Below are positions 38,705-51,978 of a DNA stretch of 64,000 nt, in pieces. Under the pieces are notes generated by a model, which saw only the letters and a list, made by a program, of their open reading frames with translations, did no database searches and was not told the DNA's origin. The stretch lies in NCBI GenBank assembly GCA_951406725.2, contig OX597829.1, forward strand, positions 4,464,001-4,528,000, given 5' to 3'. Position 1 is the stretch's first letter; every line of letters begins with the position of its first letter. The position numbers and the translations under genes are program-made. Source of the stretch: Octopus vulgaris (Eukaryota).

Positions 38705-38755
38705 CTTTTTGTGATTCCGGAGTCGATTGTGGCTCCTGTGGTTCTCTTTGGCACT
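38705..38755 (-). CDS. Receptor cytoplasmic mini-exon 4
   Basis: tttattttcag|AG...AAAAG|gtagga; 51 bp, phase 1-1; (E)CQREPQEPQSTPESQK. Confidence 0.7.
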
Positions 38756-38835
38756 CTGAAAATAAATAAGATACGGACTGATATTTAACAAAATTATAAA
38801 CAGTAAACATTTAATAAATTTATATATATATTAAC

Positions 38836-39660
38836 CAGGAAGACCTGGGATGAAGTGGTGAAGCACGACCTTCAAACATTAGGCCTCAACGAGGATTTTG
38901 ACTATTGACCGAGACCTTTGGAAATATGCTGTGCTTGAGAAGACCCGGCAAGCCAAGTGAAACCATAACCTGTGGCCTATGCCAGTGGTGTAACCCGCCC
39001 ACTCATGCGTACCTTTCTTTCATTGGACACTAAACTCTGCCTGCGAAGACCTGTTGAGGCAAGTGAAATCGAAAGGAAATTTGATGGCAGCACCGCATGA
39101 CTGGCATCTGTGTCAGTGGACCACTAAGAGCATCATCCGAGCGTGATCATTGTCAGTGCGACTGATTGGCTCCCATGCTAGTAGCACATAAAAAGCACCA
39201 TTCGAGCGTAATCGTTACCAGCACCGCCTTACTGGCACTTGTGCTGGTGGCATATGAAAGAGAACATTTGAGCGAGGTCGTTGCCAGTGCTGCTGGACTG
39301 GCTCCCGTGCAGATGGCACATAAAAAACACCATTTGAGCGTGGCTGTTGCCAGTACCGCCTGACTGGCTCCCGTGCCAGCGGCACGTAAAAGCACCCATT
39401 ACACTCTCGGAGTGGTTGGCGTTAGGAAGGGCATTCAGCTGTAGAAACTCTGTCAGATCAGATTTCAGCCTGTTGCAGCCATTTGGCTCACCAGTTCTCA
39501 GTCAAGCCGTCCAACCCATGACAGTATAGAAAGCGGATGTTACGATGATGGTGATGATGATGATGATGATGATGATGATGATGATGATGATGATGATGAT
39601 GATGATGATGATGATGAGGATGATGATTGTGATGATGATGATGATGATGATGATGGTGAT
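38836..39660 (+). mobile_element. RTE LINE 3' end with repetitive 3' UTR and (GAT)n tail
   Basis: RKTWDEVVKHDLQTLGL...DRDLWKYAVLEKT, then roughly 55-bp internal repeats and (GAT)n. Confidence 0.8.
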
Positions 39661-39929
39661 TATTAACTTTTATAATACAATGAATAAATTTACATAGATA
39701 AGCTCTTCTCTGAGACATGGTTCTCCTGAGATGTTACATAGATATTTCTGACATCCCTTTCTGATCATACTTAGGAATAAAATTGAAAAAAGCAATTTTC
39801 AAAAGGGATCTTGCACTTCATGTAGGAAGTGTCAGCCACCACCACCACCGTTGATTTAAAAAACCCGATGCGAAAGACGGAATGCGCTTCGTTTTGCTTC
39901 GCACAAAGTTGACTCAAAGTGACACCTAC

Positions 39930-39980
39930 CTTTTTGTGATTCCGCAATGGACTGAGGCTCCTGTGGTTCTCTCTGGCACT
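39930..39980 (-). CDS. Receptor cytoplasmic mini-exon 3
   Basis: tttattttcag|AG...AAAAG|gtaggt; 51 bp, phase 1-1; (E)CQREPQEPQSIAESQK. Confidence 0.7.
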
Positions 39981-40445
39981 CTGAAAATAAATAAGATACG
40001 GACTGACATTTCGCAAAATTATAGATAATAAATATTTTCTATATATATATATATATGTTAACATTTATCATACAATTATAATAAGAGATGAATAAATTAA
40101 CATAAATTATATGCAATTTTAACCAAGTTCTATATTTTAAGAGATGAGGAATTATGTACATTATTTACATTATTTACATTTGATGGATATTTGTCCTCAT
40201 CTTGTTTGTTGTTAACACAACATTTCGGCTGTTATACCCTCCAGCCTTCATCAGTGTCTTGGGGAAATTTCTCATTCCTAAGGTATTTTTCGATGTTCAT
40301 CATCATCATCATCATCATCTTCTTCTTCTTCTTCTTCTTCTTCTTCTTCTTCTTCTTCTTCTTCTTCTTCTTCTTCTTCTTCTTCTTCTTCTTCTTCTTC
40401 TTCTTCTTCTTCTTCTTCTTATTATTATTATTATTATTATTATTA

Positions 40446-41012
40446 TTGAGTGAGAGAGCAGTGTATGCTATCAAATTGACACTGGGGTAAAATATACGAA
40501 GCCCATTATACCCATCACGACTACCCGTCTGATAAGGGTACACTAGGCACATGCATCACAACCATATGTGCGCGACATGGTGATCTCATATCAAGATAAA
40601 CAGCACATGACCTTGCATGTGGGTCCCAGTTAGAATTTTCTTCTGGTCGAGTAGCCCATCCCGCTCAAAAGGTCCCTGAATAAAGGGTTGTTTAAGGATG
40701 TTGAACGAAACACCCATGTTTCCAGAGGTGAATTATTCAAACCCCATAGAATCCCTCTCAGCACATGGTTCCCCCACATGATGCTCCCCCACTACTTCTG
40801 CTCATGATCAGAGATGCACATATGGTCAGCCACTAAGAAACATGCTCAACTGGTTAAGGTCAAACAACTGACAAGCAAATCTGTGGTATTGAGCAGAATA
40901 TTTGCTGTAGCCCATCTTTTATACCAAGACAAAACGATGTACATGATAACACTTCCAATCAGTTAAGATCAGAAGCCATGAGAGCCACTGCCTGGTACTG
41001 CATCAGGGCATT
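40446..41012 (-). mobile_element. ~540-bp (TAA)n-embedded element, copy 3 (longest 5' end)
   Basis: Reverse complement of copies 1 and 2, flanked by (TTA)n. Confidence 0.85.
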
Positions 41013-41538
41013 TATTATTATTGATATTCTTCTTCTTCTTCTTCTTCTTCTTCTTCTTCTTCTTCTTCTTCTTCTTCTTCTTCTTCTTCTTCTTCTTCTT
41101 CTTCTTATTATTATTATTATTATTATTATTATTATTATTATTATTATTATTATTATTATCATTATTATTATTATTATTATTATTATTATTATTATTATTA
41201 TTATTATTATTATTATTATTATTATTATTATTATTATTAAAATTATTCATTTCTATATTTAGGAGATGAAGAATTATGTACCTTATTTACATTTGACAAA
41301 TATTTGTCCTCATCTTGTTTGTTGTTAACACAACGTTTCGGCTGATATATCCTCCAGCCTTCATCAAGTGTCTTGGGGAAATGGAGACCACTTCCCCCTA
41401 TAAATAATGGAAGATGAAGCTTTATTTCTTTAATTCAATGATTCTTTTCTTAAACTATAAAAAATATCATATTTGCCTAACGTGTTACATGAAAGTCAAT
41501 ATGCTCTTCTCTGAGACATGGCTCTCCTGGGATGTTAC

Positions 41539-50621: not shown

Positions 50622-50722
50622 ATTTTCATTGAAACATTCAATCGACGTCACAGGATACGAATCATGTGCTTCGACGTAATATTCGCAGTTTGCGTTTTTT
50701 TTAATTTCAATTTTCGGTTTCA
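50622..50722 (-). CDS. Ig-superfamily receptor exon: first half of domain 2
   Basis: Acceptor cttttatttcag|TG, donor AAT|gtaagt; 101 bp, phase 1-0. In frame with the previous exon: (V)KPKIEIKKNANCEYYVEAHDSYPVTSIECFNEN, with a C-type Ig 'A..SYP...I' motif. Confidence 0.85.
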
Positions 50723-50769
50723 CTGAAATAAAAGTGACAAACATGTTTATGAGCAGTAAAGAAAATTGA

Positions 50770-51360
50770 TACCTATTTCTTTACTAGCCACAAGAGGCTA
50801 AACACAGAGAGGACAAAACAAGGAGAGACAAACGGATTAAGCTGATTATATCGACCCCAGTGCGTAACTGGTACTTATTTAATCAACCCCGAAAGGATGA
50901 AAGGCAAAGTCGACCTCGGCAGAATTTGAACTCAGAACGTAACGGCAGACGAAATACCTATTTCTTTACTAGCCACAAGGAGCTAAACACAGAGGAGACA
51001 AACAAGGACAGACAAACGGATTAAGTCGATTATATCGGCGAGCTGGCAGAAACGTTAGCACGCCGGGCGAAATGCGTAGCCGTATTTCGTCTGCCGTTAC
51101 GTTCTGAGTTCAAATTCCGCCGTGGTCGACTTTGCCTTTCATCCTTTCGGGGTCGATAAATTAAGTACCAGTTACGCACTGGGGTCGATGTAATCGACTT
51201 AATCAGTTTGTCTGTCTTTGTTTGTCCCCTCTGTGTTTAGCCCCTTGTGGGTAGTAAAATAATATATATCGACCCCAGTGCGTAACTGGTACTTATTTAA
51301 TCGACCCCGAAAGGATGAAAGGTAAAGTCGACCTCGGCGGAATTTGAACTCAGAACGTAA
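50770..51360. mobile_element. Nested family B SINEs in a receptor intron
   Basis: A + copy (about 51037-51262) inserted into tandem - copies. Confidence 0.8.
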
Positions 51361-51472
51361 TAATCACAATAATAATGATAATAATAATAATAACAACAAC
51401 AACAACAACAACAACAACAACAACATCGAAAAATACCTTAAGAATTGGAACCCAGGTTCGAAATTTCCCCAA

Positions 51473-51518
51473 GACACCTGATGAAGGCTGGAGGGTATAT
51501 CAGCTGAAACGTTGTGTT
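51473..51518 (+). ncRNA. Minimal hammerhead motif (second Penelope-derived family)
   Basis: ACAC-CTGATGA-AGGCTG...CAGCT-GAAACGTT-GTGT. Other copies near 18403-18446(+), 40215-40258(-), 41327-41372(-), 47211-47255(-). Confidence 0.6.
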
Positions 51519-51729
51519 AACAACAAACAAGATGAGGACAAATATCCGTCAAATAATGTCCATAATTCCTCATCTCCTAAAATATAGAACTGTATTTCCG
51601 TGAATATGTGGGGCCCTCAGAGGTACCAAACATATATAAAGCGAAAAAGCATGTTGCTGTGGCTGTTGTGTGTCTGAAACTAGAAAGAAACAAGAAGATG
51701 GAAGAGGAAAGATGGAAGAATTGACGTAC

Positions 51730-51978
51730 CTTTTATATCCAAAATGATTTCTCCTCCCGCCTTGTTTTTATCCAGAACCTTCCATTTTGAAAAGCTCCGC
51801 GCTACCTCTCGTATCCATAGCTTACTTATATCGCCTGTTTGTGTTACTTTATAATCATCGCTGTCTGCGCATACTATGTCGCATTCATATGTGTAGATTC
51901 TACTTTGCCAGACCACGGGCCGCTGCATATTCGGGATATTCACCATCAACGTGACATTTTCTCCTAACCAGACGGTTC
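51730..51978 (-). CDS. Ig-superfamily receptor exon: N-terminal V-like domain
   Basis: Acceptor tttttag|GAACC, donor AAAAG|gtacgt; 249 bp, phase 1-1. Encodes (G)TVWLGENVTLMVNIP...VVW...YKV...SKLWIREV...IILDIK, with Ig A'/B, C-strand Trp and E-strand patterns and an NVT sequon. Confidence 0.85.

Follow-up and report, generated by a model that had tools for sequence, protein, structure and literature searches.

The described receptor systems closest to the octopus gene reported here include the Alr receptors of Hydractinia, the SLAM family of vertebrates and two sets of molluscan genes. The Alr genes encode clustered single-pass receptors in which the V-set immunoglobulin (Ig) domain lacks the canonical cysteines and has non-canonical disulfides of its own; the ectodomain combines domains of V-set, I-set and Fn3-like type, the core tryptophan is mostly absent from domain 1, and immunoreceptor tyrosine-based activation and inhibition motifs (ITAM and ITIM) are present (PMC9546547). 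The SLAM family is defined by a distal V domain without the canonical disulfide and a proximal domain with four cysteines forming two disulfides (PMC12084948; the definition is also given in PMC12506779). In the snail Biomphalaria, the PTC2/GRC clusters include PTC2 genes without known domains or homologues outside gastropods (PMC7494358), and the FREPs carry a fibrinogen domain (PMC11999971, whose available text makes no mention of cephalopods). Neural and structural genes make up most of the gene family expansions so far described for cephalopods (protocadherins, C2H2 zinc fingers, crystallins, reflectins and suckerins), and the string 'immun' does not occur in the available text of the paper that lists them (PMC9068888). 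No diversified cephalopod Ig receptor repertoire was found in a literature search that stopped short of subscription journals and supplements. The gene described here lies on the minus strand of a 64,000-nucleotide (nt) stretch of the 2.8-Gb Octopus vulgaris genome (G000:C16:4464001-4528000; hereafter the window, to which plain position numbers refer) and is predicted to encode a membrane receptor with two Ig domains. We give about an even chance to the reading that it is a cell-surface recognition molecule from an expanded octopod receptor family, engaged most likely in immune self/non-self sensing.

An initial annotation made from the letters of the window alone had joined eight small exons, in what it took for a probable cephalopod and is indeed octopus DNA. 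All eight were re-derived on the minus strand: every exon is bounded by an AG acceptor and a GT donor, their phases in order are 1-1, 1-0, 0-1 and 1-1 followed by four times 1-1, and the joined frame runs for 292 codons without a stop. They comprise a V-like Ig exon (51730-51978, phase 1-1, strands A' to G, with Cys61 and Cys65 in a CxxxC motif), the first half of a C-like Ig domain (50622-50722, phase 1-0, strands A, B and C, with Cys124 and Cys141), its second half (48417-48576, phase 0-1, strands D to G, with Cys181), a transmembrane (TM) exon in which basic residues follow the membrane segment (46967-47110, phase 1-1) and four tail exons. The first junction, from V to C, produces the linker IILDIK-V-KPKIEI that had been singled out in the initial annotation, and Cys199 lies across the junction after the second C-domain exon. 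Three N-glycosylation sequons precede the hydrophobic segment, which is the only one, as had been proposed, with a hydropathy peak of 2.33 over 19 residues; protein search with the TM exon gave no paralogue, yet the paralogues have a TM exon at the same place.

The first tail exon (42732-42782, 51 nt) has no tyrosine and is a homologue of a tyrosine-bearing tail exon of paralogues on C2 and C4; together with its flanks it aligned by blastn at 65-69% with C4:131158274, C4:131163719 and C2:206305797. Tail exons 2 (41728-41799, 72 nt), 3 (39930-39980, 51 nt, 67-71% to C4 and C2 paralogue tail units) and 4 (38705-38755, 51 nt) each carry an acidic repeat unit; they are tandem duplicates of intron plus exon, 72-84% alike, and homologous to tail units of the paralogues. 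A further unit at 36182-36231 has a family-type acceptor, and its acceptor side is 76-78% identical to paralogue tail units, but it contains an in-frame stop, has no GT at the family donor position and is likely a decayed fifth tail exon.

The first two exons and the last, which the initial annotation had been unable to place, could now be located by homology. The predicted signal-peptide exon (43 coding nt, minus strand, G000:C16:4530846-4530888, locus L046) lies past the window end and was placed by the layout of the paralogues and by blastn, in which it is 68-72% identical to its counterparts on C4 and C28; its acceptor, 3 nt, ATG and GTAAGT are arranged as in the paralogues. The predicted A-strand exon (42 nt, G000:C16:4529098-4529139, same strand and locus) is 72-78% identical by blastn to five paralogue loci, with E as low as 7e-19, and is separated from the V exon by a 13-kb intron whose window part is 51979-64000. 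The predicted last coding exon (32555-32673, phase 1, 39 codons to a TGA) has an acceptor region 78-79% identical to the last exons of the C2 and C4 paralogues (E ~1e-11), and its acceptor ranks 19th of 1405 AGs. The full model has 11 exons and 360 amino acids in a single frame, with GT-AG sites throughout. It describes an intact gene, whose predicted product is a membrane glycoprotein of type I that carries a single V-like Ig domain and a single C-like one.

Open stretches of the form YAG, 249 nt, GT are not rare in this DNA (4 of 91 minus-strand and 10 of 81 plus-strand sites are open in phase 1), and the acceptors of the exons rank 12-121 among the 1405 AGs when scored with a small family-trained matrix. 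Chance is instead excluded by homology, because the V exon has homologues elsewhere in the genome and the introns match those of paralogues: intron positions and phases are common to the window gene and paralogues on C28, C4, C2 and C5, and database proteins of the paralogues show identical exon joins.

The search for paralogue clusters that the initial annotation had suggested uncovered a family that it had missed. With the V exon as query, 76 genome matches were obtained at E<=0.001 and three weaker ones were confirmed with a second query, which brings the family to at least 79 V exons, none with a stop where it matches and at least 70 of them on C29 (both figures are lower bounds). The 51 V exons taken for analysis have AG/GT flanks and phase 1; one longer exon on C23, an unclear case, was trimmed to 82 codons for alignments. 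Two architectures were recognised. Genes of the form V+C(+C)+TM are dispersed on C16 (the window gene), C28, C4, C2 and C5, their C domain being split by a phase-0 intron at a common position, and genes with one to four V domains and a TM segment form arrays on C29, with 16 TM-terminated units in the stretches analysed. For those stretches we rejected an arrangement like that of Dscam, in which one locus offers alternative V cassettes, since the 16 units, with 1-4 V exons each, are separate; skipping of cassettes within a gene could still occur because all cassettes are phase 1-1. The window gene shares the family V exon (48-56% identical to V+C members of the O. vulgaris genome), the split C domain and the small phase-1 tail exons, and so belongs to this unnamed octopod V(+C) family. 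In a tree of 86 V domains, built on few alignment columns and with a rough bootstrap, it fell in the V+C clade (support 99/95) on a long terminal branch of 0.63, without an orthologue.

Of the 31 matches that a profile search returned from 1.84 billion representatives, 20 were looked up. Sixteen were proteins of O. bimaculoides, O. sinensis, O. vulgaris or Argonauta that are recorded as uncharacterized or hypothetical; the other four were two unnamed sequencing-run contigs, a five-domain Haliotis protein and a bacterial repeat artefact (P0030), which was dropped as a relative. The relatives include O. bimaculoides LOC106868859 and LOC106876057/8, O. sinensis LOC115232395, LOC115210431 and LOC115225115/6, an Argonauta hians protein and O. 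vulgaris hypothetical proteins, one of which (P0044) is identical letter for letter to the V and C exons of the C28 paralogue and so identifies the species; none of the octopod relatives checked is named or described. A sequencing-run contig of 1067 nt encodes a relative with signal, V and TM in one frame, which would imply a spliced family transcript. Word-based protein searches with the V exon, one for longer and one for near proteins, gave no match; these blanks argue only against a close annotated orthologue, because the former search also missed paralogues of ~55% identity. Pfam returned no family at E<=10 for four exons of the gene, and of 12 relatives, those that attained the I-set cut-off or came near it were all multi-V proteins; no fibrinogen or lectin domain followed the Ig domains by Pfam in the same four exons and 12 relatives, the TM segment coming directly after them. 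A PDB sequence search with the V profile gave four weak matches, the best being titin at E 0.18, and the V+C profile gave none at E<=10. Highest among the Atlas neighbours were clusters without a name, two of which contain a small number of molluscan records; V-set clusters came next. No description of the family was found in the literature, subscription journals and supplementary tables, which may list it, being outside the search; it is unmentioned in the available text of PMC9068888, PMC11999971, PMC13428168, 10.1101/2022.06.11.495763, PMC11703226 and PMC13262535, and no literature was found for six LOC identifiers. The genome and profile searches show the family to be lineage-expanded, in support of the earlier proposal of a lineage-specific receptor, and the Pfam, PDB sequence and literature searches assign it to no described family.

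Several members of the family had features of their own. The Haliotis rufescens (abalone) protein, P0027, is a single-pass protein with five tandem Ig domains and the same CxxxC after strand C', which suggests that this type of V domain is older than cephalopods. The C28 paralogue (G000:C28:3906525-3925000, L029-L031; P0044) and its O. bimaculoides orthologue P0033 are annotated with three successive TM segments, apparently duplicated TM exons that may be used as alternatives. Close V+C+C paralogues at G000:C4:131060001-131200000 and G000:C2:206225001-206335000 contain long arrays of duplicated 51-nt tail exons, some of which bear tyrosine motifs, and the C4 paralogue has an extra upstream V exon. 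Near a contig end, at G000:C13:84166082-84170507 (L043-L044), both C-domain exons were present with TT in place of GT at the donor and no V exon found upstream; this fragment is a probable pseudogene. Interspersed in the V-only array at C29:19720001-19870000 and 19950001-20150000 (L087-L101 and L067-L086) are minisatellites of 170-190 bp and at least seven histone H2B genes that are almost identical to one another; the histone repeats may promote duplications there. The database model P0052, which fuses H2B to a receptor, is probably an annotation error.

Structure prediction, likewise suggested in the initial annotation, gave an Ig beta-sandwich for the V exon. The AlphaFold model, made with an alignment of 51 sequences, had a predicted local distance difference test score (pLDDT) of 95.5, and all 50 of the VIA matches listed were V- or I-set Ig domains (Z 9.3-10.7; root-mean-square deviation (rmsd) 1.8-2.5 Å over 75-82 residues), with which Foldseek agreed. 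They included pIgR (Z 10.7, rmsd 1.8 Å, 81 residues aligned), CD58 (Z 9.9) and CD48 (Z 9.6). The model of the O. bimaculoides V+C paralogue P0033, with pLDDT of ~80-95 over an ectodomain that ends after two Ig domains, matched two-Ig proteins such as butyrophilin (Z 12.8, rmsd 4.5 Å, 179 aligned), nectin-3 (Z 12.6, 2.9 Å, 176) and CD200RLa (Z 12.5, 3.4 Å, 162), in line with the V-like plus C-like fold that had been proposed; Neph1/Rst, SYG-1 and CD166 were also among its matches, and CD58 (Z 10.8) was 27th among the 50 two-domain matches listed. The C domain of P0033 has an apparent D-E hairpin and its structural matches mix C1 and C2 types; as a lead only, C-domain features lay near C1-set and CD80-like C2-set clusters (0.85-0.88). 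A homodimer of the P0033 ectodomain was not supported in prediction (score 0.05, mark 0.32), an outcome that speaks neither for nor against one.

In neither domain do the canonical B-F disulfide and the C-strand tryptophan occur as a set, the V domain keeping the tryptophan only (48 of 51 V exons). The V domain had been described as disulfide-less; it does lack a B-F bond, with no conserved cysteine at the canonical B or F place, but it is not free of cysteines, since a pair follows strand C' (C'-C'') in every one of the 51 V exons (CxxxC in 45, CxxxxC in 6). Likewise, the two-disulfide C domain of the initial annotation has its four cysteines, but none is at the canonical B-strand position, where all 15 aligned domains lack one, and one replaces the C-strand tryptophan. 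This strand-C cysteine was found in 15/15 domains and a strand-F cysteine in 14/15, the remaining row being truncated. Of the pair placed where strand B starts and strand G ends, both cysteines were present in 10/15; they were lost together in the two complete membrane-distal C domains of database proteins, a third membrane-distal row lacks the first and ends before the second position, and two rows have the start-B cysteine with none aligned at the end of G. A further pair, at the end of B and the D-E turn, was complete in 10/15 and wholly absent from 5/15, including the window gene. From these patterns we infer disulfides Cys61-65, Cys141-181 (C-F) and Cys124-199 (start of B to end of G) in the encoded protein. 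Absence of the canonical disulfide does not speak against membership of the Ig superfamily; Alr provides a precedent (PMC9546547).

The window gene is under purifying selection. Compared with three paralogues over V+C, it gave a ratio of non-synonymous to synonymous rates (dN/dS) of 0.23-0.36, with a joint four-gene estimate of 0.27, and for eight dispersed V exons dN/dS peaked near 0.3. In the young C29 copies, on the other hand, amino-acid changes are in excess. For the main C29 array, represented by 20 of the 27 V exons at 19.7-20.5 Mb (three V exons at C29:20.22-20.26 Mb were left out), dN/dS was 2.11 (twice the log-likelihood difference from a ratio of 1, 13.5), or 2.15 without two divergent copies. 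The non-synonymous proportion (pN) exceeded the synonymous one (pS) in 169 of 190 non-independent pairs of this array, divergence by codon position followed the order 1>2>3, and the tree-free pooled pN/pS of all 51 V exons was 1.5-1.8 for pairs 3-20% apart. The description of the receptor as fast-evolving therefore fits the C29 arrays, at a dN/dS of ~2.1, but not the gene for which it was made.

[quoted passage not shown] Paralogue tails of the C2/C4 type have YxxM and YxxV motifs; neither ITIM nor ITSM was found in any of the nine paralogue tails scanned. We propose that, having no tail tyrosine, the protein would act as a ligand, adhesion partner or decoy and not by signalling through SH2 proteins.

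Immune sensing is favoured because an array, dN/dS above 1 and mixed tails fit the pattern of paired receptors; arrays of Ig receptors with dN/dS above 1 and a mixture of signalling and non-signalling tails are the immune paired-receptor pattern. In such a scheme the distal V domain would bind a partner on another cell or on a microbe and the C domain would serve as a spacer from the membrane, the fold being stabilised by the putative non-canonical disulfides (C'-C'' in V; C-F and start of B to end of G in C). The family would grow through duplication of phase-1 exon cassettes and of whole genes, and the C29 arrays would diversify their binding surfaces through selection and gene conversion. 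The window gene, in whose first tail exon the tyrosine motifs of the C2/C4 paralogues are missing, would be one of the older, dispersed members. A more specific form of the idea, which we regard as possible but hold only tentatively, is that octopus has a germline variable Ig receptor system of its own, in which ~80 V cassettes, distributed over V+C and V1-4 genes, form arrays on a single small chromosome. In the same tentative proposal, positive selection and gene conversion would have diversified the system, and paired forms with and without tyrosine motifs would work as the KIR, CD200R and SIRP paired receptors of vertebrates do, though on an Ig fold that was rewired independently; the window gene would be the non-signalling V+C member.

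A number of points weigh against an immune role for this gene. The diversifying signal sits in paralogues and not in the gene itself. Within the main C29 array significance is confined to the last third of the V exon, and the 7.2-Mb C29 cluster has a dN/dS near 1. The array shows clear recombination (among site pairs, 123 of 291 distant ones and 73 of 250 near ones are incompatible), which can bias tree-based dN/dS. The intron control gave pN above intron divergence in 184 of 190 pairs with local alignments, but the global alignments, on which we relied instead, were mixed: exon divergence (0.115) exceeded that of the downstream intron (0.059) and not that of the upstream intron (0.122). A shared Ig fold says nothing on function, and the predicted two-domain fold relies on paralogue P0033 for the C domain. 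The disulfide pairings are deduced from covariation and strand positions, and the gene model itself is a prediction from sequence and homology. Finally, there is no close database protein, so the gene may be weakly expressed or not expressed. A search of sequencing runs listed no RNA run as a holder; that blank counts neither for nor against expression.

The family could alternatively be a neural or tissue cell-adhesion code comparable to Dpr/DIP, the nectins or the cephalopod protocadherin arrays, with the window gene a conserved adhesion molecule. The structural neighbours nectin-3, Neph1/Rst, SYG-1 and CD166 point that way, as do purifying selection and the lack of signalling tyrosines; however, very young duplicates with more amino-acid than silent change point more typically to host-pathogen conflict than to a wiring code. 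Cephalopods do build neural gene arrays by whole-gene duplication (PMC9068888), but the word 'immunoglobulin' is absent from the main text, as available, of an octopus optic-lobe atlas (10.1101/2022.06.11.495763), which is weak evidence. On balance we consider an adhesion code unlikely, though it is the best of the alternatives. Recognition of individuals or gametes (allorecognition, mate or sperm-egg compatibility) is distinctly less probable. Reproductive proteins often have dN/dS above 1, and loss of the B-F bond together with clustering also occurs in the octopod family; the Alr receptors of Hydractinia are clustered, have unusual Ig domains without canonical cysteines and bind allele-specifically (PMC9546547). 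The diversity measured here, however, is that between paralogues in one assembly, there is no Fn3-like domain, and the V domains keep the C-strand tryptophan in 48/51, unlike most Alr domains 1.

Slightly less probable again is a real family in which this copy was recently silenced or is barely expressed. Such silencing would account for the want of an annotated orthologue, the long terminal branch (0.63) and the decayed tail exon inside the gene, and the C13 fragment, with its broken donor and no V exon found, would be a parallel. It is opposed by the state of the gene: 11/11 exons are in frame with GT-AG sites, dN/dS is 0.23-0.36, and both family-invariant V residues, most of the nearly invariant ones and the four C-domain cysteines have been kept. 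The notion that the gene is a true CD2/SLAM-family homologue is already largely refuted, and we give it almost no weight. It would draw on a V domain without the canonical disulfide and a C domain with four cysteines, the count of the SLAM definition (PMC12084948), and on CD58 and CD48 tying with other Ig domains as matches for the V exon (Z 9.9 and 9.6), but no PDB chain was matched by sequence, the cysteines are at different positions, ITSM is absent, B7/nectin-type proteins outscore CD2-type ones for the two-domain model and labelled relatives were found only in molluscs. The CD2/SLAM layout put forward in the initial annotation is not supported beyond a superficial likeness, and recognition with an immune purpose remains the reading that we prefer.

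Other features were noted in the rest of the window. An 851-codon open frame on the plus strand (21882-24434), acidic and serine-rich, had no Pfam family at E<=0.01 and probably represents one large exon of a gene that lies next to this one on the other strand. Inside the last intron, 37204-37827 is a near-perfect inverted repeat (183-nt arms 98% and 109-nt arms 100% identical) that looks like a foldback element or one of the miniature inverted-repeat transposable element type. The intron between the A-strand and V exons holds a 100-bp satellite at 61687-64000 and 58547-58878, with ~20 copies in the main block and a 100-base gap of Ns at 62574-62673 within it. Transposon remnants were seen at 6037-6390 (minus strand), 11745-12809 (plus) and 29894-30631 (plus), one with a mariner-type helix-turn-helix (Pfam HTH_48, E 1e-14) and two in frames that look reverse-transcriptase-like by eye and have no Pfam match. 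A short AG..GT-bounded stretch in the intron before the TM exon (47910-47971, plus strand) is putatively exon-like by eye.

The family of ~80 V domains, largely missed by Pfam and with a dN/dS near 2 in its youngest array, is a candidate for self/non-self discrimination in octopus, and its non-canonical cysteine wiring widens the range of Ig domains overlooked by standard annotation. Most of the interest lies in the family, the single gene of the window mattering mainly as an entry point and as a form without tyrosines.

By the features tested, the gene product is a member of the Ig superfamily but not of the CD2/SLAM, B7/butyrophilin/nectin, Alr or FREP groups. It resembles CD2, CD58, CD48 and CD150 in the V domain without a canonical disulfide, the short two-domain ectodomain and the four cysteines of domain 2. 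The core disulfide of CD2 domain 2 is, however, the canonical B-F bond, whereas the octopus protein has a predicted C-F core bond there, a CxxxC in V and no ITSM; in addition, each Ig domain is split by an intron. With B7, butyrophilin, nectin and CD200R the family shares the tandem V+C ectodomain and, for the paralogue V+C model, the best structural matches (Z 12.1-12.8), but at 8-15% identity. B7, butyrophilin and nectin have a canonical disulfide in each Ig domain, whereas both octopod domains lack the B-F bond; nor is there a B30.2 or other known tail domain, or evidence of orthology. In CD4 domain 2 a cysteine takes the place of the C-strand tryptophan and is bonded to the F strand, the one feature shared with the octopus C domain and most likely convergent. 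Octopod database relatives have the exon structure and cysteine pattern of the window gene but are paralogues and not its orthologue: a third pair of cysteines, found in the C domain of most V+C members, is missing from it, the C29-type genes have no C domain, and the C2/C4-type tails have tyrosine motifs. Likeness to Alr extends to clustering, non-canonical disulfides in the V-set and tails of which some have tyrosine motifs and some do not, but the V-set, I-set and Fn3-like ectodomain is missing and no sequence link to Alr appeared among the labelled profile-search matches. The PTC2 and FREP genes, as clustered, diverse molluscan single-pass or Ig superfamily recognition genes, offer a functional precedent for an immune role, although the octopod family has no fibrinogen domain. 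By analogy, the gene may work in the manner of the Alr (PMC9546547) or snail PTC2 (PMC7494358) clusters.

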